From: Thermodesulfobacteriota bacterium
Lineage (GTDB): Bacteria; Desulfobacterota_D; UBA1144; Nemesobacterales; Nemesobacteraceae
DNA length: 64,000 bases
Assembly: GCA_965204035.1 (NCBI GenBank)
Contig: OZ241964.1
Span: 1,438,726-1,502,725 of the forward strand
Direction: 5' to 3'
Below, piece by piece: positions 11,927 through 54,734 of the stretch. The position numbers were made by a program, and so were the translations under genes. The notes under the pieces are model-generated. The model was not told the DNA's origin, ran no database searches, and saw nothing but the letters and a program-made list of their open reading frames with translations. Numbering within the stretch: position 1 is the first letter of the stretch; each line of letters opens with the position of its first letter.

Positions 11927-13633
11927 TCACCACCCCTTCAGCCCGCTTGCGGATAAATCGTTACTTTCTTCGCAATCATCACCGAGACTCTGGTTAGTTG
12001 TGTCAGCCGCATTCCAGAAATTATTGCGAACAGTCGATAGGCATTCTTGATCCTGTCCTACCTGCTGACCGAGAAACTTCTGAGTGATGACGCGGCGGTG
12101 CTCCGGCGAATCCGTGAAATAGCCCATGATTTCATCCTGACTCTCATCCTGATTGAAGTAGTGCTTTATATCAAGACCCCCTCGGAAGACAATAACGTTT
12201 TCCGCGTCTATATCGGAGGCATCCGGAAACTCGAGCCTGCCGGTCTGCTCGATCAAGTAGGGACACACGCTCAGAAAAGTCCTGTAACCGACCAGAAAGC
12301 CGTATCCGAACGCCTCCTTGGTTCCGCCGCTGTCTCCAGGCAGCGGTTCATTCTTTACCCTGTCGTAACGGGAAAGGCTGTCCGGATCGGTGGCCCGGTT
12401 TATGCCGAAAGAGCAGATCATGGCGGTCCGGTTAGTTATTCCGGGAAAGAAATCAAGCCCGAAGAACCTTTGAAAAAGAGCAGGCCAACCGCCACCGTCC
12501 AACGGTGGCAACCCATACGTCTCTCTAGGCTGTTCACCAGATAGACTTTCATATCCCCTCGGCCCGTACGTAGTTATCACGGTACTGCCGTCGGCATGCG
12601 CTTTCGCGATTTCACCAATATATCTTATGGCCTTACCTACACTATTTTCTTCCTCTATAATGTGCACAATCCTGTCGAAAACCCCGCCTGAGTAGACTCG
12701 CTCACCGTCAATTTCGGCCGCGGTGGAATGATGCGCGTCCATAAATTCGCGAAAATTCATACGCATCCCCGGATAGGCAGCATTGCAGGAAGCATCGTCT
12801 TCACAAGCGCTGAAAAGAATATCCATCATGCGCGCCGCGTTATTAAGACCATCCGATATGGGGTGTTCGTGCGGAACCGTAACCTGTTCAAAAAAGACAT
12901 TGTGAAGTTCGGGACTGTTCTCCTCGGCAAGCATGTGGCTCACGACGACACCTCCGAATGAACTGGTAAGCAGGTTCACCGGTGAGCGTATGGTTCCGGA
13001 AGGCACAAACTCCGATACTTTCATCACGTTCCCGTCAACGGTAATTTCCGCGTCACCGTCCGCGAGTAAACTTATTACGGAGTTAGCATCCTGCGCGTTG
13101 AGCTTAGGGTTGATTTTACTGAAAGTATCATGCTCTTTGAGACAGGAGATGAATTCCTCGCCCGGAAGACATTCCCACTCAGCGGTCAGGTTTGCGTGGC
13201 TTGACCCGCGGTAATTTATCGCGACCCAGAGAGTATGCACTCCTCCGTCCTCGCCGAGCAGGGAATCTATTCTGCTGCCCGTTCCGCCCTGAATTACGAC
13301 GCCCATGCGCTTAATTGTGCCGGTCTCTCGAACGGAGACCCACACGTCTATGGAAACGCCATCGGGCGCGGTGTAAGTTCCGGAATACAGTCTGCCCCAC
13401 GGATCACCTGCGTTCTCAGTGTTGAAAATCAATCCTCCGGCACCCGGCGGAGGCACATCCGGCGGAGGCACATCCGGCGGAGGCATATCCGGCGGAGGCA
13501 TATCCGGCGGAGAACCACTGTCGGCCGAACCGCATCCCCAGACCGCCGCTAAACATATCAGAAGAACGAAGAGCCCTTTAAGAACGCGACACGGATCCGT
13601 AAAGAGGCAGGACATGCTGTCTGTTGAAAACAT
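11927..13633 (-). CDS. Putative secreted lipoprotein with a Pro-rich linker and a possible alpha/beta-hydrolase core
   Basis: Signal peptide ending LAAVWGC, then PPDMPPPDMPPPDVPPPDVPPP. TSSFGG resembles a nucleophile elbow. Fold assignment is weak. Confidence 0.5.
   Translation of the reverse strand: MFSTDSMSCLFTDPCRVLKGLFVLLICLAAVWGCGSADSGSPPDMPPPDMPPPDVPPPDVPPPGAGGLIFNTENAGDPWGRLYSGTYTAPDGVSIDVWVSVRETGTIKRMGVVIQGGTGSRIDSLLGEDGGVHTLWVAINYRGSSHANLTAEWECLPGEEFISCLKEHDTFSKINPKLNAQDANSVISLLADGDAEITVDGNVMKVSEFVPSGTIRSPVNLLTSSFGGVVVSHMLAEENSPELHNVFFEQVTVPHEHPISDGLNNAARMMDILFSACEDDASCNAAYPGMRMNFREFMDAHHSTAAEIDGERVYSGGVFDRIVHIIEEENSVGKAIRYIGEIAKAHADGSTVITTYGPRGYESLSGEQPRETYGLPPLDGGGWPALFQRFFGLDFFPGITNRTAMICSFGINRATDPDSLSRYDRVKNEPLPGDSGGTKEAFGYGFLVGYRTFLSVCPYLIEQTGRLEFPDASDIDAENVIVFRGGLDIKHYFNQDESQDEIMGYFTDSPEHRRVITQKFLGQQVGQDQECLSTVRNNFWNAADTTNQSLGDDCEESNDLSASGLKGW
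13444..13512. repeat. 15-bp in-frame tandem repeat, about 4.6 units (CCGGCGGAGGCAYAT)
   Basis: Units at 13444, 13459, 13474 and 13489 plus a partial unit. Encodes the (PPDM/PPDV) linker of the lipoprotein on the minus strand. Confidence 0.9.
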
Positions 13634-13994: not shown

Positions 13995-14984
13995 ATGAAA
14001 TACGAAAAATTGACCGCAAAAAAGAAACTGCTGGATAAATATGCACCGCTGCCCGGCGCCCTTCTAAGCAATCTGGACGATTGGTTTCGGGTTGAACTGA
14101 CCTACACGAGTAACGCAATTGAAGGAAATACTCTAGGTCGCCGTGAAACCGCGCTGGTGGTCGAAAAAGGTCTCACCATCGGGGGTAAATCACTTCTTGA
14201 GCACATGGAAGCCGTAAACCACGCCCGCGCTCTTGACTGGGTCAAAGAACAAGCGAAAGGCAGACCGCATCCGCTGACCGAAGAGGATATCCTGCATATC
14301 CACCGTCTTATCATGAAGAGTATCGATGATCACAACGCCGGTCGTTACCGCGTGACGCCAGTGCGAATCTCCGGTTCGGCGGTAGCGCTGCCGAACCCGC
14401 GCAAAGTGCCGGACCTGATGAACGGGTTAGCGAAATGGCTCAAGCTGGCAACCGGCCTGCACCCGGTAGAATTGGCCGCCGAAGCCCATTACCGGCTGGT
14501 TACCATTCACCCGTTTACCGACGGCAACGGCCGCACGGCGCGGCTTCTAATGAACATGGTCCTGCTCATGTCGGGTTACCCCGCAGCAATAATACGCAAA
14601 CGCGACCGGCTGGCTTATATCGACTCGCTTGAAAAAACGCAGCTGGGCGGCTCTAAAGACGCATACATGAAAATTGTCGCGCGGGCGGTTGGCCGTTCAC
14701 TTGATATATATCTCAAGGCGGCTGAAGGCAAAACGGATACAGGCGATGATAATGCCCCCCTGCTTAAAATCGGTGAACTGGCAAAACTGGTCAACCAGAG
14801 AAATTCCACCATACGCCACTGGACCAAGGAAGGTCTGCTCGAAGTCGCCGAGATTACCGACGCCGGGTATCAACTCTATGCACAGGAGATGGTTAAAAGA
14901 ATAAGGTTAATAAACAAGCTTAAATCACGCAGATTTACGCTCAGGGAAATCAGGGAGAAAATACCGCGTGATTCTCAGGACTGA
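13995..14984 (+). CDS. Fic-domain protein fused to a C-terminal MerR-type HTH
   Basis: Fic motif HPFTDGNGRTARL. N-terminal inhibitory-helix motif SNAIEG. C-terminus LKIGELAKLVNQRNSTIRHWTKEGLL...YQLY is a MerR-like HTH. Confidence 0.85.
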   Translation: MKYEKLTAKKKLLDKYAPLPGALLSNLDDWFRVELTYTSNAIEGNTLGRRETALVVEKGLTIGGKSLLEHMEAVNHARALDWVKEQAKGRPHPLTEEDILHIHRLIMKSIDDHNAGRYRVTPVRISGSAVALPNPRKVPDLMNGLAKWLKLATGLHPVELAAEAHYRLVTIHPFTDGNGRTARLLMNMVLLMSGYPAAIIRKRDRLAYIDSLEKTQLGGSKDAYMKIVARAVGRSLDIYLKAAEGKTDTGDDNAPLLKIGELAKLVNQRNSTIRHWTKEGLLEVAEITDAGYQLYAQEMVKRIRLINKLKSRRFTLREIREKIPRDSQD

Positions 14985-17663: not shown

Positions 17664-18538
17664 GCGAAAAAAAGGGGAACCGGTCATTGATAAATCTCGG
17701 AGCAGCGCCTTTTCTTAACATGCAGCCACTCATTTATCCTCTGGAAAAAGGGGTTGTCGAGCACAGCTTTAATATAATGTATTTTGACCCTTTCCTTCTT
17801 TCCGACAATCTGTCGAAAGGAGTGGTTGATGTCGCCCCCATTCCCTCGGTTGAATTTCTAAGAGCCGACGACTACTGCATTCTGCCCGACATTTCCATAT
17901 CCTCTTTCGGAAAAGTCGACAGCGTCATACTCAAGGCACGAAAAGAAATAACGAAAATAAAAAGCGTGTCGGTTGACAGCAGGTCCAAGAGCTCAACGGC
18001 CCTGCTCAGAATCGTGCTGGAGCTCTTCCTCGGTCTTAAGCCCGAATACGTAAAAAGAGAACCCGTAAACGGTTTCCTTGAAGGAGTTGACGCCGGGATG
18101 CTTATCGGCAACGCGGGTCTTCAGGCCCGTCACCTCTCCGCGGAAAAATCCCCCTTCACGTACGACCTGGGGGAACTCTGGACGAGGGAAACCGCCCTTC
18201 CCTTCGTATACGCGGTTATGGCGATCAAAAAAGGGGACGACGCCACAGCCGAAGGCTGTAAATGTCTTGTTTCAACGAGAGAACAAGGAGTGGAATTCAT
18301 CCCGGAGATAGTGGACATCGAATCCCGAAAACTGGGCCTCAGCAGGGAGCATTGCACGACTTACCTTAAAGAAAGAATCAAGTATGACCTTGACGGCCCA
18401 AAAATTGACGGACTCATCAAGTATCGCGACCTTCTTTTCGAGCTTAACGAAATAGAGAAGAAAAACGAAATCGATTTCTACGCAGACCCTTCGGAGACGA
18501 AACCCGGAAGGAGAGGAGAATGGAAAAACGGATCATGA
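17660..18538 (+). CDS. mqnA: MqnA-like (chorismate dehydratase, futalosine pathway; VitK2_biosynth family)
   Basis: ATG overlaps the dgt stop (ATGA). INLGAAPFLNMQPLIYPL N-terminus is typical of MqnA-type periplasmic-binding-fold proteins. Confidence 0.7.
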   Translation: MSEKKGNRSLINLGAAPFLNMQPLIYPLEKGVVEHSFNIMYFDPFLLSDNLSKGVVDVAPIPSVEFLRADDYCILPDISISSFGKVDSVILKARKEITKIKSVSVDSRSKSSTALLRIVLELFLGLKPEYVKREPVNGFLEGVDAGMLIGNAGLQARHLSAEKSPFTYDLGELWTRETALPFVYAVMAIKKGDDATAEGCKCLVSTREQGVEFIPEIVDIESRKLGLSREHCTTYLKERIKYDLDGPKIDGLIKYRDLLFELNEIEKKNEIDFYADPSETKPGRRGEWKNGS

Positions 18539-19353
18539 AACTGGGCCACAGTCCCGACGCTGACGACGCGTTCATGTTCTACGCCATAGCGAGCGGAAAG
18601 GTGGCTTCCGAAAAGATAGATTTCGAGCATGTGATTGAAGACATACAGTCACTCAACAAGAGAGCCATGAAAGGAGAGCTCGAAGTAACGGCAATCTCCG
18701 CCCATGGATACCTAAGCGTGCAGGACCGCTACCGGATTCTCTCCTGCGGAGCCAGCATGGGAAAAGGGTACGGCCCCATAGTGGTTGCCAAGAAGAAAAT
18801 TTCTGACCTCAGGGGAAAAGCCGTCGCGGTACCCGGGAAGCTTACTACCGCATATCTTCTTCTGAGTCTCTACGCTGATGATTTCATCCCGGTTGAAGTG
18901 CCCTTTGACAAGATCATGGACAAGGTGCTCGGAGAAGAGGTAGACGCGGGTCTTCTTATACATGAAGGACAGCTTACCTATGAAGAGACGGGGCTTGATC
19001 TTCTGTTCGATCTTGGAGCAATGTGGGCCGAGGAGACCGATCTTCCGATGCCGCTTGGACTTAACGTGCTTCGAAGAGACATACCCCGGGGGCTTGATGC
19101 CGAAGTTCTTCGAGTACATAAAGAAAGCATAGAGTACGCCCTCTCGAACAAAAAAGAGGCTCTTGATTACGCGATGCGCTTTGGAAGGGGGATGAGCGAG
19201 GATACGGGAGAGAAGTTCGTGTTGATGTACGTAAACGAGTGGACCAGGGACCTTGGCGAAAGTGGAACCGGGGCGCTTGAGTATCTTTTTGAAAAAGCCC
19301 GCGCAAAGGGAATCATAGCCGAGAACCCAATGCTTGATATTCTCTGCGACTGA
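18520..19353 (+). CDS. mqnD: MqnD-like (1,4-dihydroxy-6-naphthoate synthase family)
   Basis: KLGHSPDADDAFMFYAI resembles the MqnD SPCPNDTF block. GGAGAGGAG RBS just upstream. Confidence 0.65.
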   Translation: MEKRIMKLGHSPDADDAFMFYAIASGKVASEKIDFEHVIEDIQSLNKRAMKGELEVTAISAHGYLSVQDRYRILSCGASMGKGYGPIVVAKKKISDLRGKAVAVPGKLTTAYLLLSLYADDFIPVEVPFDKIMDKVLGEEVDAGLLIHEGQLTYEETGLDLLFDLGAMWAEETDLPMPLGLNVLRRDIPRGLDAEVLRVHKESIEYALSNKKEALDYAMRFGRGMSEDTGEKFVLMYVNEWTRDLGESGTGALEYLFEKARAKGIIAENPMLDILCD

Positions 19354-19359
19354 TTTTTC
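19337..19359. repeat. Left copy of a perfect 23-bp direct repeat ATATTCTCTGCGACTGATTTTTC
   Basis: Covers the last codons, stop and 6 nt after mqnD. An identical string occurs at 21518..21540. Confidence 0.95.
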
Positions 19360-19519
19360 TTAGTTTATGGAAAACCTCAAACTGTCTAGCGTTTGTCAAA
19401 AACCTCCTACTCACTAAAACAACAATAAGTGGTTCATCTGGAAATATAGTACCTCAGAATAGGGTCGAGTTTGGAACTAAGAGGCAAAGTGATAACCAAG
19501 TTAAAGATGAAAAAGGAAG

Positions 19520-20137
19520 TTACCCGAACAGCTTCGAAAGCCAAGCCATAAATGATGAATTTAATTGTGTTTGAGTAGTCAGGTCCCCCGCACCGATGGT
19601 GGCTCCCATTCTATTAGGTTTCTTTCTGGTAGCCAACCAAGCATAGAATTTTGCCTTATTTGATTTGGTTGGCAAAAACTTTTTATCATCCTCCGGAATG
19701 CTATCGATATAAGATTGGGCTAACGGCCACACCGGGTCATCATCTTTAATCATCTCTATTACGAAATCTTCGAGTTCCCCGCTTGCACTGTTATTGGGCA
19801 TCAGCCAAACACCTACGGTAGGTCCGCTGTCACTGTTAATAATTATGCCACTCTGATCCAGGTTCTCCGGAGGTTCAAAATCTGCGTCAATAAGTTTTTC
19901 CCTGATATCTTTCCAACGTTGCTTCGGACAACTGTTGCTGTCCATAACAAAGCCGACAGATTTACGTCCAGCAACCTTTGTTTGCACACTGATCTGTTTT
20001 AAGATATTGGGGTATCCTTCACAATCTTTTATGTCAAACTCAAGATTCTGCAGACACCGGTCTCGGATTTGCTTGATAACGTGTTTATCATCCTGTCCTT
20101 CAACTACAAGAAGATATTCATTGCCAACCGAAGCCAT
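19520..20137 (-). CDS. Small Toprim-like protein (DUF3226/DUF4276/DUF4435-like by recollection), partner of the upstream ATPase
   Basis: N-terminal LLVVEGQDDKHVI (EGxxD, Toprim/OLD-like acidic motif) and later GELEDF acidic block. Starts 2 nt after the ATPase stop. Confidence 0.55.
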   Translation of the reverse strand: MASVGNEYLLVVEGQDDKHVIKQIRDRCLQNLEFDIKDCEGYPNILKQISVQTKVAGRKSVGFVMDSNSCPKQRWKDIREKLIDADFEPPENLDQSGIIINSDSGPTVGVWLMPNNSASGELEDFVIEMIKDDDPVWPLAQSYIDSIPEDDKKFLPTKSNKAKFYAWLATRKKPNRMGATIGAGDLTTQTQLNSSFMAWLSKLFG

Positions 20138-20139
20138 TT

Positions 20140-21267
20140 CTATCTTACCTCTATATTGTATTCGGTGGCGGATTCAAGCTCGTTTTCTGAATACCTAATG
20201 CATCTCGTCCGCCCCTCTTCTCGTTCAAGACGGATAAGGACGCCTGAAACATCTTCGGCCTCGGTTGCGGCCCGCGCAAAACCTCTCACACAGTCGAAAC
20301 TGTGGGTCGTCGCGAAAACCTGAATATTATTTTCTTGCGCCGTTCGAAGTATCATACTCCAGAACTTGTGTTGAGCAGTGTAGTGAATTCCATTTTCCGC
20401 TTCATCAATCAGAAGGAACCCGTTGCGACAGTTACCCATAGCAAGGGCAGTACTGAATAACCGGGTAGCTCCATCACCAAGACTTTTCAGTGAGACAGGG
20501 CCATGTTTTCCAAGCCTGACGACAGCTCGCCTGCCCCTCCAACGAGCTCGAACCCCTTCCTCTCCAATCATAGCTACGCGATCCACCGGATCATCAAGAA
20601 CGAGGTTCAGAGCATTAATCGCAAGATCCTCATCTTCAGTAAGTGTGACTTCATCCCAGAGTTCGGCAATCGCTCTGTTAGATAAAATTTGAGGGCCCAG
20701 CCACTGTGATTTCATCGTTGCTGGTTTCTCATCCCTGTCAATAACATGCTGGATTCTTCGTTTCATTCTCCAGTTATTTTCAAACGAACCGAGAATCAGC
20801 CATTTCTTACCCCGGAAAGTTGTCCTGAATACAGGAACATCTCTTCCCGGAAAATCGTCGGCTACTAGTTCACGAAAGCGGGAAAGGCTTTTATCATCGG
20901 GAGCGGTCAGTTTAATTTTCAGCTTTCCGGTTTTGCCCTCTGGGCCAATTTCTATCTGCGCGCCCGTGGATGGTTCTCGTCCATGGAAAAGTGCCTTGAA
21001 ATCTAGCAAATCTACTTTCTCGCCATCTTTATCAATGCCAGCAAGAAACTCTTCACGCCCTATGATTAACTCGGCCAGTACGGACTCATCTGCACGAGCC
21101 GCATAAACTTTTACCGCTTCAAGAATAGTAGTCTTTCCACAACCGTTTCTCCCCGTAAACAAGGTTACATGACCCAATTTTGGAATTGAGAGTTTGTCGA
21201 AACACCGAAACCCCTTTATTGATAAATCAGGGAGATGGAACCCTCTGTCATCTAGTTGTTTGGACAT
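20140..21267 (-). CDS. ABC/SMC-like ATPase (AAA_21-like)
   Basis: Walker A GRNGCGKTT, signature-like LKSLGDGATR, Walker B FLLIDEAENGIH, H-loop ATTHS. Start placed at MSKQLDD (ATG 21267, AAAGGA RBS). The 54-codon upstream extension in the ORF track looks non-coding. Confidence 0.75.
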   Translation of the reverse strand: MSKQLDDRGFHLPDLSIKGFRCFDKLSIPKLGHVTLFTGRNGCGKTTILEAVKVYAARADESVLAELIIGREEFLAGIDKDGEKVDLLDFKALFHGREPSTGAQIEIGPEGKTGKLKIKLTAPDDKSLSRFRELVADDFPGRDVPVFRTTFRGKKWLILGSFENNWRMKRRIQHVIDRDEKPATMKSQWLGPQILSNRAIAELWDEVTLTEDEDLAINALNLVLDDPVDRVAMIGEEGVRARWRGRRAVVRLGKHGPVSLKSLGDGATRLFSTALAMGNCRNGFLLIDEAENGIHYTAQHKFWSMILRTAQENNIQVFATTHSFDCVRGFARAATEAEDVSGVLIRLEREEGRTRCIRYSENELESATEYNIEVR

Positions 21268-21517
21268 GGTATAAAATCCTTTGACGCGGATCCTGTAGCA
21301 TGTTAACCGAGACTGGAAAGCAACGACAACCAGATTCGGACTTTCAAAACAGCCACGAAAAACGATACCGAGATATTTAAGGATTGCAAAGAAAAAATTC
21401 CATTGTGTAAGGCCGTGAAAAGCATGCATGGAATTGCAACCGTGGAAATATCATTTCAGAAACTTTCTTTGCAATTCTTCCAGCATCATTCTCCCTCCGC
21501 TTGAAAAATTAGTGTCA

Positions 21518-21540
21518 ATATTCTCTGCGACTGATTTTTC
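21518..21540. repeat. Right copy of the perfect 23-bp direct repeat
   Basis: Identical to 19337..19359. Lies just outside the stop of the convergent gene at 21564. Confidence 0.95.
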
Positions 21541-21563
21541 CCGGCCCCCGCAGATGCCGCACC

Positions 21564-22640
21564 CTACCCGCCCTGACCCGTTTTCTCCGAGACCACTTTT
21601 TCAACAAATCCGAGAATAAACCCTATGAGACGGCGAAACTCACCTTCCCGTCTCCACGGCATCCTGAGCCTGTCGCTTATCTCAACCTGGATTGCGGGAA
21701 CCGAAAACCGCTTCGCGGCGAACTTGGCCACGGTCATCTGCCTTGCGGCGGGGAATATATCGGCTCCTCCGGCCGCGATTTCATGTTCCTGCGCAGCAAG
21801 ATAGAACTTATCAAGAACATCAGGAGCAGAAAGAAGAAACTCTCTCCCCGTTCCCACTCCCGGAAACAGATCCTCGGGCCTCTCGTTTCCGGTGCCGTGT
21901 ATGTCCACAACCAGATCTATTTTCCTCTCGGACAGAACTCTCCCAAGCACAGCCTTAAACCCGCAGTCGTCATAGTAATTTGGGTCTGTTTCCTGTTCCC
22001 TGTTCGCGTAAAGACAGTGGCAGCCGAGAACTAGATGCAACACGGCTCCCAGAGCGGCTGTGTAGAATTCATGACGCTTCAGTTTCCCCATCCTGGTGTG
22101 AGCGGTCGAGTGCGGACAGGTAACCAGAACAGGGACCGTGCCTTCAAGAAAAATGTTTTCTTCAGAGCGACCGTCGGGACGCATCCTGTAATACTGTTTT
22201 TGGATATTCTCGAAACTGACGGCAAAAGAAAAAGGGTCCTCTCCGCAGAGGACGGGGTCCGAGAACCAGTTGCCGCTTTTTATTATGTCCGCATCGCTGA
22301 TCTGGCTTCTGAGCTGCGGGCCGGGTTCATAGGCATAAAAAGACTCTTCTTCCAAGCGGATAACGGATCTTGAAAAAAGCTTTTTATCCACGCCTTCGAG
22401 GCAGTCCACACTCGCGATAAAGAGTTCGGAATCCGGGGGAAGCTCATAAAGCTCTCCCCTGACAGCAAGCGGGGAAGTCTCATCAAACACGGCCGCCGGA
22501 TAACCAAAAGGCGTACGGTAAAGAATACCGGGAACTCTTATCATCCTGAGCAGCCTGCATCGCTCAAGGTGCCCGCTTCTTATCCCGCCCTTTCGCAGGG
22601 TTCCGTAGACAAAAAGCTTTTCGGGCTTCGATTCGGTCAT
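21564..22640 (-). CDS. Fusion protein: gamma-glutamylcyclotransferase/AIG2-like N-domain plus N-formylglutamate amidohydrolase-like C-domain
   Basis: LFVYGTLRKG...GELYEL (GGCT-like), then VLVTCPHST...DIHGTG (FGase-like His/Asp metal motifs). Confidence 0.6.
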   Translation of the reverse strand: MTESKPEKLFVYGTLRKGGIRSGHLERCRLLRMIRVPGILYRTPFGYPAAVFDETSPLAVRGELYELPPDSELFIASVDCLEGVDKKLFSRSVIRLEEESFYAYEPGPQLRSQISDADIIKSGNWFSDPVLCGEDPFSFAVSFENIQKQYYRMRPDGRSEENIFLEGTVPVLVTCPHSTAHTRMGKLKRHEFYTAALGAVLHLVLGCHCLYANREQETDPNYYDDCGFKAVLGRVLSERKIDLVVDIHGTGNERPEDLFPGVGTGREFLLSAPDVLDKFYLAAQEHEIAAGGADIFPAARQMTVAKFAAKRFSVPAIQVEISDRLRMPWRREGEFRRLIGFILGFVEKVVSEKTGQGG

Positions 22641-25056: not shown

Positions 25057-25291
25057 GGTAATCCTCCTTAAAACAGTTTTTTGCCGTAATTCGGGGCCTA
25101 TATTATAACGCTATTTCCAAATCTTTGTAAACCGTCCGCATCACTGAGGCGTGCGCGCTGTTGAGCACGCGCATATGTATCAAGTCCCCGAGTGCGAAAA
25201 AAAATTCTGCCCCGGGATTTCCTGTTTCTGTTCAGAGCTTGACCGGATGCGGGAATTCTGAGAGGCGCCCGAAAGACCTCGGGCAACCAAT

Positions 25292-25320
25292 TTGAATTTA
25301 TTCCCGCTTGCCGTTATACT
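25292..25320 (+). promoter_or_regulatory. Sigma70-type promoter: -35 TTGAAT, 17-bp spacer, -10 TATACT
   Basis: Conserved base-for-base in all three copies. Lies 24 nt upstream of the leader ATG (25345). GCCCGA-N6-TCGGGC hairpin immediately upstream. Confidence 0.7.
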
Positions 25321-25393
25321 GACGGTCGGAGGGTATACAGAAAGATGAGCAAAACAGAAAGAAATCCGTTACTGATGACTGAGAAAGGGGCTA

Positions 25394-25409
25394 CCCCCCC
25401 CCCCATTTT
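25394..25409 (+). repeat. Homopolymer tract C11-A-T4 inside the leader coding region (copy A)
   Basis: Counted directly. The leader ORF 25345..25428 terminates 19 nt after the tract because the downstream signal-peptide frame is offset by 1 nt. Confidence 0.95.
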
Positions 25410-25561
25410 GTCTCCCGCTAAGTTCTGATTCCCCCGGTTTTTCCCGCAAGTCCGCCCGGACGCTTTCCCTTCTCCTGTTCCTGCTGCTCGGCGCGTTCAG
25501 TCTGCCCGACGCGGCTTTTGCCCAGATTCTAAGGGTTGTTTATGCGGTAAAGGACCTAAGC

Positions 25562-27763
25562 GTGTCCGCGGTCGGCAACACGCTGCGAGTGTCGTGGGCT
25601 AACGACACTGATAACGGCTTTGACGCTCCTACTCATCACCTTGTGCACTACACCACCTCGGCCACCTTGAGAAGCGATTTAAGCAATGTAGGCTCAAACG
25701 TAGCCACCCAGTGGGTGGACGCGGGCCACAGCGGCACGACGACCTCGCACACGATCTCCGGTCTGAGCTACGGCACGACCTATCGGGTGCGCGTACAGAA
25801 CCAATATGTAGGGAGTGATAGTCAAAATTCCAACAGCCTTTGGACAACCAGTAGCGCTACGACCGGGGCTGCCCCCACGACCCCCACGACTCCTGCGCAG
25901 ACCGCCGAGCTTGGGGCTATCACGCCTGGCGCCGAGGGCGGAGTTCCGTCCATCTCGGTTTCCTACCGCCCCGTCACCTCCTCCTATATACAGATCGTAA
26001 AGAGCGATCAGCCCGCGTTCGGACCCGGGGACACCTGGCCGGAGCGCTACCGAGAGTGCCCCGGAAGAACCCTGCCCGGCGGCGTCGCCGCGGTGAGAAC
26101 GGAGGACACGTTTACCCCCGGAGTCAAGCGAGTCATTTTCAAGGGGTTTGATAAGGATACCACTTACCTGGTGCGGACTTGCAAAGGTTCAGTCATCTCT
26201 CCCCAGCTTTCCGTCACCACCTGGACCGTTCCCGGACCGCCGAAGGACGAGAAGGTGGTTGGCAGCAACAAGGACGGGATCTGCGTCAGATGGGCTCCTC
26301 CCGACAACAATGGCGGCGAGGGGGCGAGCATAACCGGCTACGATCTCCAGTTCAGGGAGTCTGGTGCGTGGAATAGCGAAGAGGCAAGCCACCCAAGAGA
26401 CGGATGGGTGACGGTTCCCGTCTTCGGAACCAGCACCAGCAAGGATATTCTCCGCCGCAGGGTGGATAACGGCAATGTGCTCTACACGGTGCCCGAAGGT
26501 CTGTACGATGTCCGGGTGCGGGCGAAAAACGGTATTGATCCCGGGAGCAAGTGGGTTACCAAAGAACTGGTGCAGGTGTCCGACCAGGGAACGGGTACCT
26601 GCGCCGCGGGAACATCCGTTCCCGCGCAGACTCCCCCCGCGCAGACTCCCCCCGCACAGACTCCAACGACGGGAGGCGGCGGCACCCCGGGCGGCGGCGG
26701 CACCCCGGGCGGCGGGGGTGGTACTCCTTCCGGCGGCGGTGAACCGCAACTGTCTTCAGACGCTTCCCTGAGCGGACTCCGCGTCTCTGAAGGAGACCTG
26801 ATGTTCAGCCCCGGGACGCGGGACTACGAAGTGACGGTGGGTCTTGAGGTGAGCGAACTCTCACTCACCCCAGAGGCCGGTCACCCCGACGCGGAAATAG
26901 AGATAAACGGCGTCTCCGCGCAAAGCGGAGAGGAAACGCGGATTGATCTCGGGGAGGACGAAACCGTCTCGATAACGATAACGGTCACCGCTCCCGACGG
27001 AGAGACCGCGATAACCTACACGGTAAGAGTTGCACGGGGGGAGGAGTGCGGGATAAACGACAAGGAAGCCCTCACAAGGTTCTACCGGGCCACGGGGGGA
27101 GACGAGTGGACAATGAAAGACAACTGGAACACCGAAAATCCTCTTGGGGAGTGGTACGGAGTAAGTACCGATGAAAACGAAAAAGCAATATCCCTTCTTC
27201 TGGCTGACAACAACCTTGAGGGAAAGATTCCCAGGGAGTTTCTGTGCCTCGCGGAACTCAAGGAACTCGCCCTCTGGGGCAACGAGGGGCTTTCGGGGCA
27301 TGTACCCGAAAACCATACGCTGGCGACAGAGAGGGCCGCGCTTCTTTACATTGCGCGCGCGCTTTCGCTCAACGCCGAGTGGTTCGATACTTACGAAGCC
27401 CCCTATTACGACTTCCCGGAGTGGCATGACGGGGTTACGACGGATGACGGAAGGGTAACGGAACTTTCCTTCTCGGGGGAAGACATAAGCGGAGTGATTC
27501 CCGTAATTCTCTTAACACAGCTAGAAGAGCTTGAGACTCTTGACCTTGAGTGCTCGGGCATCACCCTTGGCGGAGACGCGCCCGCGGGGGTTGAGGTAAA
27601 GGAGGGCTGCGATGAGGAAGAGGAGGAACGGCCGGACGGCGGGGGAGGCTGCGCTCTCGGAGACCAGGGGAGCGGGGGAGCGCCAGGCATCCTGCTTCTG
27701 CTGCTTGTGGCTGCCGTGTACTGGAGAGGGGCTTTTCTGAAAGTCCTCGGACGACCAGTTTGA
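25562..27763 (+). CDS. Family member 1: FN3 repeats, Pro/Thr/Gly linker, cadherin-like beta-sandwich, LRR, GGC tail; disconnected from its start codon and signal peptide (apparent phase-OFF)
   Basis: The frame is open from 25379 and encodes FCLPLSSDSPGFSRKSARTLSLLLFLLLGAFSLPDAAFAQ (signal peptide) with no ATG/GTG/TTG before 25562. FN3-like blocks (LRVSWA..YRVRVQN; VRWAPPDNNGG..YDVRVRAKN). LSGLRVSEGDL..YEVTV cadherin-like. LADNNLEGKIP LRR. Tail GGGGCALGDQGSGGAPGILLLLLVAAVYWRG. Confidence 0.75.
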   Translation: MSAVGNTLRVSWANDTDNGFDAPTHHLVHYTTSATLRSDLSNVGSNVATQWVDAGHSGTTTSHTISGLSYGTTYRVRVQNQYVGSDSQNSNSLWTTSSATTGAAPTTPTTPAQTAELGAITPGAEGGVPSISVSYRPVTSSYIQIVKSDQPAFGPGDTWPERYRECPGRTLPGGVAAVRTEDTFTPGVKRVIFKGFDKDTTYLVRTCKGSVISPQLSVTTWTVPGPPKDEKVVGSNKDGICVRWAPPDNNGGEGASITGYDLQFRESGAWNSEEASHPRDGWVTVPVFGTSTSKDILRRRVDNGNVLYTVPEGLYDVRVRAKNGIDPGSKWVTKELVQVSDQGTGTCAAGTSVPAQTPPAQTPPAQTPTTGGGGTPGGGGTPGGGGGTPSGGGEPQLSSDASLSGLRVSEGDLMFSPGTRDYEVTVGLEVSELSLTPEAGHPDAEIEINGVSAQSGEETRIDLGEDETVSITITVTAPDGETAITYTVRVARGEECGINDKEALTRFYRATGGDEWTMKDNWNTENPLGEWYGVSTDENEKAISLLLADNNLEGKIPREFLCLAELKELALWGNEGLSGHVPENHTLATERAALLYIARALSLNAEWFDTYEAPYYDFPEWHDGVTTDDGRVTELSFSGEDISGVIPVILLTQLEELETLDLECSGITLGGDAPAGVEVKEGCDEEEEERPDGGGGCALGDQGSGGAPGILLLLLVAAVYWRGAFLKVLGRPV
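26621..26665 (+). repeat. 15-bp in-frame tandem repeat x3 (CCCGCGCAGACTCCC), followed by a Gly-rich imperfect repeat
   Basis: Encodes PAQTPPAQTPPAQTP; followed by GGGGTPGGGGTPGGGGGTP. Confidence 0.9.
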
Positions 27764-27788
27764 ATTTATTCCCGCTTGCCGTTATACT
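27760..27788 (+). promoter_or_regulatory. Sigma70-type promoter copy B: TTGAAT-17-TATACT
   Basis: Same sequence as copies A and C. The member-1 stop codon TGA (27761-27763) sits inside the -35 hexamer. Confidence 0.7.
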
Positions 27789-27874
27789 GACACTCCAGTG
27801 TCAGGTAAGGAGGTAGTACAGAAAGATGAGTAAAGCAGAAAGAAATCCGTTACTGATGACTGAGAAAGGGGCTA

Positions 27875-27890
27875 CCCCCCCCCCCATTTT
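27875..27890 (+). repeat. Homopolymer tract C11-A-T4 (copy B)
   Basis: Counted directly. Leader ORF 27826..27909 stops shortly after the tract. The main frame is offset by 1 nt. Confidence 0.95.
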
Positions 27891-28060
27891 GTCTCCCGCT
27901 AAGTTCTGATTCCCCCGGTTTTTCCCGCAAGAGCACTAAAGCAATTTCCCTTCTTCCCGGACTGACCGGCGGCCATGGCGCCGCTCCGGCGGTCTCGCGC
28001 CGGGCCGCGTCCGCGTGGCGCCGCCCCGCCCTCCTCCCCGTCCTCGCGCTGCTGCTCGGC

Positions 28061-30538
28061 GTGTTCGGCCTGTTCGAGGCCGCGCCCGCCGCGGCGCAGA
28101 CCCCCGTCTGGTCGTCGGTGCTGACGGTTAATGCGGAAGGCGCAGGCCTAGGCTGCGGCGTTGTAGCCGGCTGTGGGTCTCGGTTAACGGACAATAGCTT
28201 TACGGTGGGCGGCACGGACTTTGTTATTGCTTTATTGCAGGACTACAACAGTGGCACTTATAGCGGTCAACTGAGGTTCCAGTTAGATGAGAATCCGAAT
28301 GATGCTCTGAAGGCCATGAAACTTTGTGTCGGGTCGACCTCATTTTCGCTGTCGAGCCCTTTTGGCAATCTGTACGCTTTCACCAACGCCAACCTGCCCT
28401 GGTCGGCCGGCGCCAAGGTGCCCCTGAGCATCATGGGCAGCGGCGCGTCCTGCCCGACGCCCCCGGTCTCGCTGGGCCGCGCCGGCAGCATGTCCGTCGA
28501 CGGGTTCCACCCAATGGGACCCGGACGCATGAAGATCGCCGAGGGCACATCGATCACCTACGGCATCGTGATCCACCAGCCGCCCACCGCGGATCTGACC
28601 ATCACGCCGCGACACCACAACGTCCGACCGGACGGCAGCGACTACCCCAACGTCGACACCAGTCTGCTCACGATCCACAACGCGGTCACCTGGAAAGCCG
28701 CCCCGCACCCCAACTACCTGAGCGGGGACTGGCAGCAGGCCAAATCGGTCGGGCTCACCGCCGTGGACGACAACGAGTGCAAGTCTCCGCCCGGCACCCG
28801 GTACTGGATCAGGCACCACGGCAGCGGCGGCGGTCCCGACTGGGGCGGGTGGGACCGGCAGGACCGGCACCATGGCCTGGTGATCTCGATCGAAATCATC
28901 GACGACGACTGCAAATATCTGGCCGCTTCCCCGGGCCAGGTGTATCCGGAGGAGGGCGCCAGCGCGACCTACACCGTGCGCCTGAAGACGCCGCTCGAGG
29001 ACGCCGCGTACATTTCCCCGCGCATCAGCGTCCCCGGCGACAGCGACCCCGGCGCGATCACGGTCTCTCCCGAGCGGATCCGGGTCGAAGCGGGAGACAC
29101 GAGCCCGAAGACGTTCACGGTCAGCGCCGGAAGGGACGCGAACTCCCGTAACGAGGTCCTGATCGTCGACCACAGCGTCGACTCGCCGGGGATCCCGGCG
29201 GATTACCTGGGCGCCCAGGTGACCGTCATTGTCCAGGACGAACAGAACGCGGCGAGGACGCAGGAGCGCGACGCGCTGAGCGTGACCGGGCTCGCGCTCA
29301 CGGCCGGTTCGGAGGCGGTGGCGCTGAGCCCGGCCTTCTCGACGGATGTGCTGTCCTACCGGGCGCAGGTCCCGGCGGGGACGGCGGGCGTGACGCTGGC
29401 GCCGCACTGGAGCGGCGGGGCGAGCGTGTTCGCGGGCTCGCGCCGGGGCGATACGACCTTCACGCGCCCGGCGCGGGTGCGGCCCTCGGGGACGGCGGTC
29501 GCGCTGGCGCTGGCGCCGGACGGCGGCGCGACCGAGCTGTGGGTGATGGCGAGCGACGGTTCGAGCGGCATGACGACCTACCGCATCGAGGTGACCGAGG
29601 CGCAGACGCAGGCGCAGGCTCTGACGACGGGCGGAGGAGGCACCCCGGGCGGCGGTGGCGGTTCTCCTTCCGGTGACGGAGGAGGCGGTGGAGCCCCTCC
29701 CACTGGCGGAGACAGTCCTTCGCCCGAAGAACCCCAAGAGCCTGAACAGACTGATGAGTGCGGAGATAACGACAGGGAAAACCTTGTGAGACTCTACGAC
29801 GCTACGGGCGGAGACAACTGGGATGAGGAAAAGAAGACAAACTGGAACTCCCCCGAACCTCTCGATCAGTGGTATGGAGTGGATACAGATGAAGACGGAG
29901 AGGTTGTATCCCTTCGTCTTGCGGATAACAATCTCTCCGGACAGATGCCGACAAAAGAACTTCTGTGTCTTAATGAAGACACGGAACTCAAGGAACTTGC
30001 CCTCTGGGATAACGACGGTCTCTCGGGAGAAGAGCCGGATGAACTTGTGCTTGCCGTCGAGAGAGCCGTGCTGAGAGACATAGCGGAAACGATTGACCTT
30101 AACCCCGAGTGGTTTGATGATTACGAGGAGCCCTTTGACTTCGAGAGCTGGCACTCAGGAGTTACGACGGATGAGGATGGAAGGGTGACGGGGCTTGATT
30201 TCACCGGGGAAGACATAGAGGGAGTGATTCCGGGGAGTGTTTTTGAGCTTGAAAACCTCACAGTCATAAGGAAGGGATGCGAAGTCACCCTTGAAGTCGA
30301 AGAGCCAGAGGGAGTGAATGTGATGATGGCTGAAGACTGCCCGGAGGAGACGGCACCTGAAGACATGGAAGAAATGGAGGAAGAGGAAACGGCAGCGTCC
30401 GGAGACGGGGGATGCGCCCTGGGTCAAGGGGATTCTTCTGTATCCGGCTTCGGCTTGTTCCTCGTGACTATTCTTGTCTTCGCGGCGCTTGTGAGAAAAA
30501 GGGTGCTGGTTTCCCGTCTGGCTGGGAACAGGCGGTAA
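28061..30538 (+). CDS. Family member 2: high-GC N-terminal adhesin-like region, Gly-rich linker, LRR, GGC tail; also disconnected from its leader ATG (apparent phase-OFF)
   Basis: The frame is open upstream through FCLPLSSDSPGFSRKS...RRPALLPVLALLLGVFGLFEAAPAAAQ. The only in-frame start is a GTG in the middle of the signal-peptide h-region. Cadherin-like block LSPAFSTDVLSYRAQV. LRR block LADNNLSGQMP. Tail DGGCALGQGDSSVSGFGLFLVTILVFAALVRKR. Confidence 0.75.
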   Translation: MFGLFEAAPAAAQTPVWSSVLTVNAEGAGLGCGVVAGCGSRLTDNSFTVGGTDFVIALLQDYNSGTYSGQLRFQLDENPNDALKAMKLCVGSTSFSLSSPFGNLYAFTNANLPWSAGAKVPLSIMGSGASCPTPPVSLGRAGSMSVDGFHPMGPGRMKIAEGTSITYGIVIHQPPTADLTITPRHHNVRPDGSDYPNVDTSLLTIHNAVTWKAAPHPNYLSGDWQQAKSVGLTAVDDNECKSPPGTRYWIRHHGSGGGPDWGGWDRQDRHHGLVISIEIIDDDCKYLAASPGQVYPEEGASATYTVRLKTPLEDAAYISPRISVPGDSDPGAITVSPERIRVEAGDTSPKTFTVSAGRDANSRNEVLIVDHSVDSPGIPADYLGAQVTVIVQDEQNAARTQERDALSVTGLALTAGSEAVALSPAFSTDVLSYRAQVPAGTAGVTLAPHWSGGASVFAGSRRGDTTFTRPARVRPSGTAVALALAPDGGATELWVMASDGSSGMTTYRIEVTEAQTQAQALTTGGGGTPGGGGGSPSGDGGGGGAPPTGGDSPSPEEPQEPEQTDECGDNDRENLVRLYDATGGDNWDEEKKTNWNSPEPLDQWYGVDTDEDGEVVSLRLADNNLSGQMPTKELLCLNEDTELKELALWDNDGLSGEEPDELVLAVERAVLRDIAETIDLNPEWFDDYEEPFDFESWHSGVTTDEDGRVTGLDFTGEDIEGVIPGSVFELENLTVIRKGCEVTLEVEEPEGVNVMMAEDCPEETAPEDMEEMEEEETAASGDGGCALGQGDSSVSGFGLFLVTILVFAALVRKRVLVSRLAGNRR

Positions 30539-30585
30539 AAGCTTTTTGCGTTGCACGATGCGATACGGCGCATCTCCTTAATCCC

Positions 30586-30783
30586 GGAGAGGCGCCCGCG
30601 GGGGTTGAGGTAAAAGAGGGCTGCGATGAGGAAGAGGAGGAACGGCCGGACGGCGGAGGGGGAGGCTGCGCTCTCGGAGACCAGGGGAGCGGGGGAGCGC
30701 AAGACATCCTGCTTCTGCTGCTTGTGGCTGTCGCGTACGGGAGAGGGGCTTTTCTGAGGGGGCGGCGCGGAAGAAACCTCTGA
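30586..30783 (+). pseudogene. Orphan 3' fragment of a family member (tail only, no start)
   Basis: Encodes ...APAGVEVKEGCDEEEEERPDGGGGGCALGDQGSGGAQDILLLLLVAVAYGRGAFLRGRRGRNL*, near-identical to the last ~65 codons of members 1 and 3. Lies 48 nt after the member-2 stop. Confidence 0.8.
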
Positions 30784-31024
30784 GAAGAGAGAATTCATCC
30801 GACAGGTAATCCGGGGATGTCGGGAAGCGGATTCGTTGCGGCGAAGCGCCAGGATTTTAACTGGCCGGCAAGTTTGAGGCGTGCGCGCTGTTGAGCACGC
30901 GCATATGTATCAAGGGTTTCCCCGGGTGCGAAAAAACTTCTGCCCCGGGATTTTCTGTTTCTGTTCAGAGCTTGACCGGATGCGGGAATTCTGAGAGGCG
31001 CCCGAAAGTCCTCGGGCGACCAAT

Positions 31025-31053
31025 TTGAATTTATTCCCGCTTGCCGTTATACT
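31025..31053 (+). promoter_or_regulatory. Sigma70-type promoter copy C: TTGAAT-17-TATACT
   Basis: Identical hexamers and spacer. Lies 24 nt upstream of ATG 31078. Confidence 0.7.
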
Positions 31054-31077
31054 GACGGTCGGGAGTTAGACAGAAAG

Positions 31078-34000
31078 ATGAGTAAAGCAGACAAAGATCC
31101 GTTGCTGATGACTGAGAAAGGGGCTACCCCCCCCCCCATTTTTTGTCTCCCGCTAAGATCTGATCCCCCCGGTTTTTCCCGCAAGTCCGCCCGGACGCTT
31201 TCCCTTCTCCCGTTCCTGCTGCTCGGGTTTCTGTGCCTGATGAACGCCACACCCGCTGCGGCGCAGACATCCATCTGGTCTGCGACGCTGACGACGAGGC
31301 CGACAGATAACGGTAACCGGTTCACCGGCTGCCGGAATGCCAGAAGTGGAAACACCAAATGCAGCGATACCTCCACGTTGACGGACGATGATCTTACGGT
31401 CAGTGGCACGGATTATCAGATAATATCGATTTATGCGGAGAAGAGTCGTTCCAATTCCACTCTGGTGATGCAATGGGACCAGGACGTGAGAACCGCACTG
31501 GACAGCTACAAGCTCTGCGCCGGCACGAAGCAGTATGCGTTCGCGGACGCAACGCACGCTGCCAATGATTATACCCAGTGGCAGGCCTCAGCCCTCTGGT
31601 CTGACGGCGATATGATTTCCCTGAGCATCGGCACGTCCTGCCCGAGCTATGTCCCTCCCCCCACGGTATTGCTCTCGGCCACTCCGAACCCCGTGAAAGA
31701 GGGGCATCCGGTGACGCTGACGGCCACCCTGTCTGAGGCCCTTACGATCGATGTCAACATTCCGCTTAAGTTTATCAGGGGCACGACGGGCTCGTGGGAC
31801 TACGGTGCTACGCCGCACATCTCGATCCCAAGCGGGCAGACTACCGGCACGGTCACGATCCCGACGCGGCCGGACCATGACCACGACGACGAGATCTTCA
31901 CGGTGGAAATTTTCAAGCCAAACCTGACCGCGTTGCTGACTGCGGGCAGCATGACCTCCGTTATGGTGACGATCCGTGACACGCCGCCGTCGGAGCACCC
32001 GGCCGCCCCCACGGCGACGAGAAATGCCGGCCTGAGTCGTATCACTCTGCTGACAGACACCGCCAGTACCAATGCTGCTACGGGGAACATCCAGAAGCGC
32101 GTGGAAGACAGTCTCAGCCCGTCCTTCCATTCCGACATCCTCAACTACGCGGTGCGCGTGGACGCCGGGGTGAAGAGAATACAAGTGGGTGTCACACCCC
32201 AATACCCTAACTCTATAGCTTACCTCATCATCTACAGCCAGCCGGCAATCCGCTCCGCCCCCTACACCCGTTGGGTGGAACTGGACACGGACGTCAAGCG
32301 TATACGGATCTTGGTGGATACCCCGGGAGCTGCACAAAGGCGGATCTACGAGCTGACGGTGCTTCGGGGCGGTGTCGTGGATCCGTACGCGGAGGATCAG
32401 ACCACAGTCTGGTCATCGACCCTGACGGCGAAGGAACTCTCATCAAGCTTGAGAGGTTGCGATGACTCTGATCAACTGGCTGCAAACAAGTGCTTGGAGG
32501 CCCTTACGGAAAATGAGTTCTCGTATTCGGGTACGCGCTATGGTGTCAGGTTGCTCTCACTCGGCTTCGTTAGCGGCGATTCCAACTTCCTTTTCGGACT
32601 CAACAAGGCCATCCCCAGCGCCATGAAGAACCTCTTGACGCTACACGTCGGAAAAGAACGGGCGCTCCCGCTTAGTTCCAGCACCTTTTCTTCCCAGAGC
32701 GGCAATACCCTCCAATGGTTAAGGTATGTCGTGGGAGGATGGGGAGTGGGCGGTACCGTTCTGCTGAAGCTGACGGGACCGACCTCGCCGGTCATCCCCG
32801 CGGTCTCGCTCTTGGCCACTCCGAACCCCGTGAAAGAGGGACATTCGGTGACGCTGACGGCCACTCTGTCTGCGGCGCTTCCGGTGAATACCTTCATTCC
32901 GCTTAAGTTTATTAGGAGCACGGCGGACTCGTTGGACTACGGTGCTACGCCGCACATCTCGATCCCAAGCGGGCAGACTACCGGCACGGTCACGCTGAAG
33001 ACGAAAGTGAACGTGTACGACGACGACGACGAGACGTTCACGGTGGCGATTGACGAGGACAATCTGTCCTCGAGGTTGACTGCGGGAAGCCTGTCCTCCG
33101 TCACGGTGACGATTGAGGACTACCTGCCGCCCGTCCTGCGGGAGCTCTCCCTTTTCGCCGTGGACAACAGACCCTACGCGAGACGCCTGGGTTTTGTGGA
33201 AGATGATCTTGAACCGACTTTCCACGAAGACACCCTCAACTACACGGTGCGCGTAGACGACTGGGTGCGGTATATAAGGGTGGGTGCCGAAGCCCGATAC
33301 AGTAACCCTGAAGACCCGACGAAGGTACTCGTCAACGGCGAGCCGAAGAAACCTTTCTCCAGTTTTTGGGTGGAACTGAAGGATGTCACGCCGATCGAAA
33401 TCGTGGTGAGGACTCCGCTCGGGGAGTCGCGGACCTACGCGGTGAGAGTGCTTCGGGGCAATGCCGAGACTCCGCCCGATCAGACTCCGCCCGATCAGAC
33501 TCCCCCCGATCAGACTCCCCCCGATCAGACTCCAACGACGGGCGGAGGCGGCGGTCCTCCTTCCGGCGGCGGTGAACCGCAACTGTCTTCAGACGCTTCC
33601 CTGAGCGGACTCCACGTCTCTGAAGGAGACCTGATGTTCAGCCCCGGGACGCGGGACTACAAAGTGACGGTGGGTCTTGAGGTGAGCGAATTCTCACTCA
33701 CCCCAGAGGCCGGTCACCCCGACGCGGAAATAGAGATAAACGGCGTCTCCGCGCAAAGCGGAGAGGAAACGCGGATTGATCTCGGGGAGGACGAAGAAAC
33801 CGTCTCGATAACGATAACGGTCACCGCTCCCGACGGAGAGACCGCGATAACCTACACGGTAAGAGTTGCACGGGGGGAGGAGTGCGGGATAAACGACAAG
33901 GAAGCCCTCACAAGGTTCTACCGGGCCACGGGGGGAGACGAGTGGACAATGAAAGACAACTGGAACACCGAAAATCCTCTTGGGGAGTGGTACGGAGTAA

Positions 34001-34602: not shown

Positions 34603-34958
34603 GAAGAGATCCCGACCGTGATATCATCCGCGCTCCTGAGCGGATGCGGGGTAAAGCCGCGACGATACCCGGCGCGCGCGTGGAAACGTCATAGAACACA
34701 TAAACTCAAGGACAGTTCAGGTCCGAAAGGCGCTTTATCAGGGGCGAGGGAGGAGATGACCGCACGGGCGGGTGTAGCGTTGGCGGGGATGATGGCGCTT
34801 GTTTCGGGATGCCGGGCCAGGGTCGGATAGCGGTTCTCCGTTTGTTCAGGCAGAAAATTTAAAAGCAGGATTGTCCCAATAGCGGCTGACGTCGTGGCGG
34901 TGAAGTTCTGGCTGCGGAAATCCGAAGCCCGAAAATCGTTACGGCGGAAAAGGCCTCA

Positions 34959-42096: not shown

Positions 42097-42583
42097 CCTT
42101 TTCCCATCCTGACTTCAGCACATTTTCCTGGAATAGGCACTTAGCCTGTGCATTTCTCACAGAGGGGTATGGGAACGTCTGTATCTCTCAAGATTTTCTG
42201 ATTCTTTTTTTCTTGCCCCTTCCTCGGTCATCCGTCGTGAAGTCTTTACTAGCGGATAGTGCTCGGAATTTTTTGCAAATTTAAGTTTTTGGCATTTCTT
42301 CAGTTTCCCTACCTCAATTCCATCCTTCCCGTCCATCTCCCTCAGCAAATCCATGTCCAGATATCTCCTTGCTTTCCCACTTCGTCCCGGAGATATGCCT
42401 CAGCTTGGCCGCGCACAACATAATTTTCTTTATAATCCTTTCCTTCGGATTGTTCGTCCGTATCCCCCGCCAGCGCAACAACGGGGACCGCTATCTCCTC
42501 AACGCAGTTCTCCAAGTACCTTACCGATGAAGGCAATTGATAATCAGGCTCCCATGATATATTGTCTTGGCAGGAGAAGTAGC

Positions 42584-54731: not shown

Positions 54732-54734
54732 ATT

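Follow-up and report, generated by a model that had tools for sequence, protein, structure and literature searches.

We analyzed a 64-kb window (the whole stretch of 64,000 nucleotides from contig OZ241964.1; all coordinates count from its first letter) and focused on a small insertion directly after the mqnD gene, here called the cassette or islet. Retrieving relatives by their MqnD proteins, we find that the host belongs to Candidatus Dadabacteria, which several records file under Thermodesulfobacteriota. The cassette carries two genes between two copies of a 23-bp direct repeat and is followed by a convergent gene. The locus is laid out as follows.

18520..19353, plus strand: mqnD, the target gene, of the 1,4-dihydroxy-6-naphthoate synthase family (Pfam VitK2_biosynth, 2.3e-76)
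19337..19359, plus strand: left 23-bp direct repeat, attL-like (att, attachment site), made of the mqnD end, its TGA stop and 6 nt further
19360..19519, minus strand: left non-coding cassette end, on the 3′ side of the operon
19520..20137, minus strand: DUF3226 protein of 205 aa (Pfam DUF3226, 1.8e-46)
20140..21267, minus strand: AAA_15/AAA_21 ABC-type ATPase of 375 aa (Pfam AAA_15, 4e-19; AAA_21, 7.5e-15)
21268..21517, minus strand: right non-coding cassette end, the upstream region of the operon
21518..21540, plus strand: right 23-bp direct repeat, attR-like, non-coding, same as the left copy
21541..21563, no strand: 23-nt spacer of the occupied haplotype, 52% identical to the second occupied lineage (L086, below) and unlike the conspecific empty site
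21564..22640, minus strand: GGACT (gamma-glutamyl cyclotransferase-like) domain protein of 358 aa, the convergent neighbor (Pfam GGACT, 7e-11)

The 23-mer, ATATTCTCTGCGACTGATTTTTC, occurs at exactly two sites in the window (19337-19359 and 21518-21540). Allowing up to 3 mismatches, we detected no third site, and 100 shuffles gave an expectation of 0. The last 17 nt of mqnD lie inside the left repeat, and the right repeat ends 23 nt from the stop of the GGACT gene, which is syntenic in all relatives compared. The MqnD protein of the window is 98% identical in amino acids to that of a related species (L001) and 99% identical to P0245 of L181, a conspecific contig. The inter-repeat DNA (2158 bp) has a guanine-plus-cytosine (GC) fraction of 0.443, compared with 0.514 and 0.516 in the flanks. 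Since the stop of the ATPase gene is only 2 nt from the start of the DUF3226 gene, the two genes form one operon on the minus strand. No terminal inverted repeats were seen at the cassette ends, and local alignment of 200 nt on either side of both copies stayed at chance level, revealing no longer cryptic duplication. An earlier, sequence-only reading had reported the repeat pair with its coordinates and its overlap with the mqnD end, an AT-richer insert holding a single two-gene operon, regeneration of the mqnD 3′ end by the repeat, and the lack of terminal inverted repeats; it was accurate on all of these.

We checked the same interval in the relatives. In 12 related species (L001-L012), only a spacer of ~30-35 bp (84 bp in L005) separates mqnD from the GGACT gene, and the cassette is absent. 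Another 14 contigs (L169-L182), found through exact MqnD variants, are likewise empty. Empty sites with a single copy of the repeat sequence, as the sequence-only reading had predicted, are thus present in 26 contigs, conspecifics included. Only three contigs are occupied: the window, L081 and L086. L081 comes from a separate low-coverage assembly that is 99.5% identical to the window and contains the insertion with both repeats; hence, the insertion is not an assembly artefact. The conspecific contigs L181 and L182 have flanks 98-100% identical to those of the window and an empty site, the homology between the window and L181 breaking at 19348 and restarting at 21559. Compared with all close relatives, the cassette is a true insertion. 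As the window is occupied and L181/L182 are empty, and as L086 is occupied and L007 is empty at 98% flank identity, the islet is a presence/absence polymorphism in at least two species.

Two other features of the interval were noted in this comparison. The 84-bp spacer of L005 (10831-10915, against ~35 bp elsewhere) contains a second partial TGATATTC and may be the scar of a lost or internally deleted insertion. In L015, L017, L020 and L021, the mqnD-GGACT interval spans ~5 kb, and we considered whether the site is a hotspot with alternative cargo. This idea was rejected: the interval reflects a different synteny and not mobile cargo, its genes being of housekeeping type by open reading frame (ORF) inspection (an aldehyde dehydrogenase-like gene, a 217-aa conserved protein and a large FAD-type oxidase).

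The second occupied lineage provides an estimate of age. L086, reached via the closest homologs of the ATPase, is a 32-kb contig from a different Dadabacteria species group; its flanks are 85.7% identical to the window, and it bears the same cassette at the same place. The window and L086 are colinear over 7.9 kb at 84% identity, both non-coding cassette ends included. The flanks of L086 are 98% identical to the empty L007, with the two L007 alignments abutting precisely at the repeat. Comparing the window with L086, we find synonymous divergence (dS) values of 0.45 (DUF3226 gene) and 0.74 (ATPase gene), while seven flanking core genes range over 0.47-0.81. The cassette dS equals that of the core genes; thus, the cassette has co-diverged with its hosts and is an old resident, not a recent arrival. 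The L086 cassette is the orthologue of the window cassette. The same comparison shows that the insertion predates the split of the two Dadabacteria species groups (dS about 0.5) and that the occupied allele has since been kept as a rare presence/absence polymorphism.

The DNA around the cassette is also specific to the occupied allele. The occupied haplotype of the window has its own mqnD terminus (from repeat position 13), its own 23-nt spacer and its own last GGACT codons, and the flanks turn conspecific-like only ~50 nt outside the right repeat. The single copy in the conspecific empty sites (L181/L182) is ATATTCTCTGCGGATAATCTTAT. Because the terminus, spacer and GGACT tail of the occupied haplotype have diverged on their own, these empty sites are not excision products of the cassette. 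From the comparison with L001, we had considered that the cassette was imported together with ~800 bp of the GGACT gene from a foreign lineage; this was withdrawn, as L181 shows that the right flank is native ~50 nt out.

Next to its surroundings, the right repeat is well kept. Between the window and L086, the right repeat is identical at 22 of 22 positions plus one indel in a T-run, and the repeat starts and ends at the same points in both lineages. Around it, identity falls to 52-65% in the five upstream 23-nt bins (the outer 115 nt) and to 52% in the downstream bin. A binomial estimate puts the probability of such conservation at about 1e-5 for a match rate of 0.6 and at about 1e-3 for 0.74. 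We therefore take the right repeat to be under constraint and suggest that it still matters as a recombination site. Further inside the cassette, a block of four 23-nt bins at 21311-21402 matches L086 at 87-96% identity in three of them and at 78% in the remaining one; it is probably the promoter/5′ region of the operon. At the left end, the first ~27 nt are unalignable with L086 (39% identity), and a conserved block comes next (~19383-19451).

The two copies of the repeat differ in origin. In the window they are identical to each other, and the left copy departs from the native terminus of the conspecific L181 from repeat position 13, as expected if an element-borne copy had replaced the gene end. 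In L086 the copies differ by one indel. An extra A (CTCTAGCGAC) marks the left copy, which continues with CTTGAGCTTG, making a 33-nt match to the native site of L169/L012-type genomes, and the right copy lacks the extra A and runs into an L007/L008-type spacer. The extra-A allele is also present in the empty site of an assembly with 573x coverage and is therefore a real allele. Since the L086 copies stem from different target alleles, they point to recombination of the attB x attP type; a staggered-cut duplication would copy one target molecule. Integrative elements as a rule spare their target gene by just such an attP x attB exchange. Its two marks, an element-borne copy replacing the gene end and copies that differ in origin, were seen in the window and L086. 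The sequence-only reading had taken the repeats for att-like cores rather than a transposase duplication, and both the two target alleles in L086 and the conservation of the non-coding right copy above its surroundings speak for that view.

The extra-A allele has a consequence for the protein. The one-base insertion CTCTAGCGAC (L086 11904-11926; L169 around 6818-6850) creates an earlier TAG stop, giving an MqnD of 275 instead of 277 aa. This allele is found in the occupied L086 and the empty L169/L170; MqnD can thus do without its last two residues.

We then analyzed the cargo. The ATPase matched PDC-M38A (8.3e-80), AbiLi (6.8e-48), AriA (9e-19) and also GajA in PADLOC, and its N-terminal P-loop region has sequence matches in PDB to the OLD nuclease 6p74 and to PtuA. 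Its homologs are 365-379 aa long, which places the window copy in the same size class. The DUF3226 protein matched PDC-M38B (7.7e-43). Both PDC-M38 matches are full length and the genes are adjacent, so the locus holds the complete PDC-M38 gene pair. At the sequence level, the DUF3226 protein gave no match to PDB entries, to Toprim or DUF4435 domains, or to AriB or AbiLii in PADLOC. Its AlphaFold2 model, built with 58 homologs, reached a predicted local distance difference test score (pLDDT) of 94. The best PDB folds for this model were the C-terminal Toprim-containing regions of OLD nucleases (6njv, 6njx and 6nk8; probability 0.99-1.0, with a template modelling (TM) score of only about 0.5); the match to chain 8v46_D of the AriA-AriB complex was much weaker. 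Residues E12, D65 and E122 are invariant across the DUF3226 homologs and would fit a metal-dependent nuclease site. From the model, the DUF3226 protein is predicted to be the Toprim-like nuclease partner, that is, the effector, and the ATPase is predicted from its homologs to be the sensor or regulatory subunit. Between the window and L086, the ratio of nonsynonymous to synonymous divergence (dN/dS) of the cassette genes is 0.18-0.22, indicating that both are under purifying selection.

Homology and fold together suggest that the cassette is a split OLD-family anti-phage system with an ATPase and a Toprim nuclease, of the AbiL/PARIS/PADLOC PDC-M38 type. PARIS consists of the ABC ATPase AriA and the Toprim nuclease AriB (PMC11464382, PMC12409363). 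Like PARIS, AbiL and OLD, the cassette operon pairs an ABC-type ATPase bearing an N-terminal P-loop with a predicted Toprim-fold partner. Unlike in PARIS and AbiL, this partner belongs to Pfam DUF3226 and not to DUF4435 (AriB) or the AbiLii type. AriA and AriB, at about 55 and 35 kDa, are also larger than the cassette proteins of 375 and 205 aa, and the best match of the cassette is PDC-M38, a candidate system in PADLOC. By analogy with PARIS (PMC11464382), the ATPase would keep the nuclease inactive until a phage trigger frees it. The literature searched held nothing on DUF3226 or PDC-M38, and exact-protein look-ups of the window's own proteins returned no record.

A recombinase was sought at several levels. 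Neither the cassette nor the 52 largest ORFs of the window encode an integrase, transposase or other recombinase, in agreement with the sequence-only reading. None of the 29 contigs of close relatives has an integrase-bearing element at the mqnD site. The exact 23-mer and a degenerate 21-mer had 0 matches in viral contigs, which also contained no relatives of the ATPase. The exact 23-mer had 0 matches in the metagenome contigs of the Joint Genome Institute (JGI), a set without close Dadabacteria relatives in which the best MqnD is 76% identical.

Paralogous AAA_15-DUF3226 cassettes exist in other Dadabacteria, where they are found among insertion sequence (IS) elements, next to type III CRISPR-Cas genes, or within other defense islands. 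What they have in common with the window cassette is limited to the coding region and about 160 bp upstream and does not include the ends; against the paralogous cassette in L082-L084, homology is lost at 21426. No flanking repeats were found around the paralogous cassettes in L082-L085, L087 and L088. In L082 (1-13300; ENA ERZ26694896 ctg117895, a 1.92-Mb Dadabacteria chromosome), a 77%-identical AAA_15-DUF3226 pair sits in an IS cluster (rve, DDE_3 and Transposase_mut). The pair in L085 is 70% identical and comes right after a type III CRISPR-Cas module that includes a Cas02710 gene.

Taken together, we read the islet as an att-flanked, recombinase-less, two-gene anti-phage cassette directly after mqnD, an old and rarely retained remnant resembling a cis-mobilizable element (CIME), with a probability of roughly 0.5. 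The junction anatomy suggests that the DNA arrived with an mqnD terminus of its own. In a Campbell-type, attP x attB exchange, this copy would have recombined with the chromosomal terminus, keeping mqnD intact and pushing the second copy to the opposite end, so that 23-bp direct repeats resulted. The catalyst was most likely a tyrosine-type integrase. As this integrase would no longer be linked, the cassette would be a stripped-down remnant or CIME-like element. Gain and loss at present probably result from homologous recombination within the core genes on either side, or from repeat-to-repeat deletion, and active transposition today is unlikely.

The islet belongs to a familiar class, that of recombinase-less islets with att-like ends. 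CIMEs and other decayed integrative islands have attL and attR flanks and no integrase (PMC5704250; ICEberg 2.0, PMC6323972). Like them, the islet is small cargo between direct repeats of the 3′ end of a target gene, the gene-proximal copy restores the gene, and inside there is no integrase, relaxase or transposase, only the AAA_15 ATPase and the DUF3226 protein. Unlike CIMEs, it has no known cognate integrative and conjugative element, integrative and mobilizable element or integrase, and no tandem accretion with a complete element; it is old and has co-diverged with its host, and its excision in trans is hypothetical. The ssrA-targeted vcr islands of Dehalococcoides are site-specific islands at the 3′ end of a single-copy gene (PMC3146451). 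They share with the islet a direct repeat of about 20 bp from the target 3′ end, presence or absence among close relatives, and adaptive cargo. However, the vcr islands have their own site-specific recombinase and span many kb, whereas the mqnD islet is 2.2 kb long, has no recombinase and targets a protein-coding gene. There is no integrase gene beside either att-like site, as would mark a tyrosine-integrase island.

Several observations weigh against the CIME-like interpretation. Conservation is poor in the ~27 nt just inside the left end and in the ~115 nt just inside the right end, and recombinase arm sites would not be expected to look like this; the unalignable left ~27 nt are consistent with element-borne arms captured from different earlier hosts. 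ATATTCTCTGCGACTGATTTTTC shows no recognizable core-type inverted repeats. Beyond the right repeat, the spacer is that of the old occupied haplotype and does not resemble the conspecific one; nothing therefore hints at a recent re-integration, and it is hard to see why an att site not in use would be under selection. The viral contigs, the JGI metagenomes and the 182 related loci yielded no integrase, parent element, attP-bearing contig or circular junction. Only two occupied lineages are independent, and the conservation argument is a single comparison. Finally, the chimeric repeat pair of L086 could also arise via homologous recombination between two occupied haplotypes.

The main rival is a passive relic exchanged by homologous recombination. 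Here, a one-off ancient insertion, through an illegitimate or short-homology event, would have duplicated 23-33 bp; the repeats would be passive relics, and the cassette would move only when occupied and empty alleles of the mqnD-GGACT interval recombine homologously. This account, which we consider possible though doubtful, agrees with the equal dS of cassette and core genes and with the lack of a recombinase in the cassette and the 52 largest ORFs. An old linked haplotype should have its own diverged terminus, spacer and GGACT tail, as observed, and the flanks are species-specific within about 50 nt of the cassette. Other nearby variable islets have no repeats, which indicates that strains exchange islets without them. 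However, a passive relic is expected to have gathered about 6-9 substitutions in the 23 non-coding nt, and none is observed while the neighbors are down to 52-65% identity. Nor does it account for two copies that are still identical (window) or one indel apart (L086), and it leaves the origin of the 23-33-bp duplication unexplained.

A bolder alternative is that ATATTCTCTGCGACTGATTTTTC is a live site for a recombinase encoded elsewhere in Dadabacteria, by the host or another element, which would exchange minimal, recombinase-free defense cassettes at the mqnD end. If so, selection for exchangeability would explain the perfect non-coding copy over a dS of about 0.5. Excision would give the circular junction ...AAATTAGTGTCA-ATATTCTCTGCGACTGATTTTTC-TTAGTTTATGG... 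and the empty junction ...AATGCTTG-ATATTCTCTGCGACTGATTTTTC-CCGGCCCCC... The sequence-only reading had leaned in this direction, proposing a minimal, possibly trans-mobilised cassette. Our data do not bear out such a unit: the cassette co-diverged with its host at the dS of the flanking core genes, the empty sites of L181/L182 did not arise from it by excision, the paralogous cassettes elsewhere share neither ends nor repeats with it, and no parent element, attP contig or recombinase turned up. We regard a live site as unlikely.

Alternatively, a need of both convergent genes in cis might preserve the 23-mer: mqnD would use it for its last codons and stop, and the GGACT gene or the cassette operon as a 3′ end or regulatory element; only duplicating insertions would then survive. 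The right copy, 23 nt past the GGACT stop, does stand out from its surroundings as conserved, and both convergent genes share the single copy in empty sites. Against this, positions 12-23 vary freely among the empty sites (GATAATCTTAT, AAGTAATTTTAT and GCTGATTTTTT), and RNAalifold across 12 species gave -3.6 kcal/mol with no covariation and no conserved structure. With no terminator-like site, Rfam match or significant fold either, a shared terminator or structured RNA in the repeat was rejected, and a need in cis is quite improbable.

Target-site duplication is already largely refuted, and we give it very little credence. A transposase-like or casposase-like enzyme acting in trans, with cuts staggered by 23 bp at a preferred target, would produce a perfect direct target repeat with the same boundaries in two lineages and would require no recombinase in cis. 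Usual target-site duplications, however, measure 2-15 bp, and 23 bp is far longer. The cassette has no terminal inverted repeats, and its ends are not conserved (39-65% between the occupied lineages). In L086 an indel separates the copies, and each runs on into a different spacer allele, so they were not copied from one target, and related cassettes at other loci lack flanking duplications.

A role for the host XerC/D recombinases at a dif-like site, as in integrative mobile elements exploiting Xer (IMEXs), would suit direct repeats around a recombinase-free element and the GC-skew sign change at about 19.4 kb, but is scarcely credible, since that change is local and follows gene orientation with no chromosome-scale switch, every relative has the 3′ end of a coding gene at this site, and the 23-mer shows neither dif-like dyad symmetry nor the ATTATGT-type arm of the dif consensus. 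An integron gene cassette was likewise rejected, as the ends have no attC-type inverted repeats and the left non-coding end, which has no Rfam match, shows no significant fold (z-score 0.72).

Other regions of the window also vary. A 9.8-kb high-GC block (25146-34953; GC 0.57-0.63) holds three giant cadherin-like/LapA-like ORFs (25562-27763, 28061-30538 and 31078-34602). It is absent from the conspecific L181/L182, where the dodecin gene is directly followed by ccsA, and its junctions have only the 7-bp repeat CATCACT in common. A 568-aa ORF with no Pfam match (11927-13633) adjoins an EVE-domain gene and is missing in L001 and L004, and a Fic-MerR fusion gene (13995-14984) is missing in L003-L005; no flanking direct repeats were found at either islet. 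A general repeat-generating mechanism in the genome was rejected on these grounds: the two nearby variable islets have no repeats, the cadherin block has only 7 bp, and the paralogous cassettes have none. Single defense- or toxin-like genes are scattered among housekeeping genes at 6805-8028, 40578-41960, 42353-42808, 49619-50455, 51804-52412, 53601-54854, 55160-56461 and 56523-57788. They are of the types AAA_14-DUF4143 (twice), SLFN/AlbA_2 with HATPase_c_4, DUF433, TIR-domain protein, HEPN, HipA and Fic, and we detected no recombinase among them.

A rare allele with a fixed place on the chromosome, the cassette is older than the species carrying it and has att-like repeats and no linked recombinase. 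If the repeat is an active site, the locus would represent trans-acting mobilisation of single defense cassettes outside integrons, a single-site, integron-like or IMEX-like cassette exchange at a protein-coding gene; otherwise, it is an ordinary decayed islet. For DUF3226 and PDC-M38, on which the searched literature is silent, it offers a first genomic context and a fold-level hypothesis of function, in which DUF3226 would be the Toprim/OLD-like nuclease partner of an ABC ATPase. For the Dadabacteria that carry it, uncultured and probably sponge-associated organisms, the locus is a clean natural example of a minimal defense system kept in a streamlined genome of ~2 Mb.

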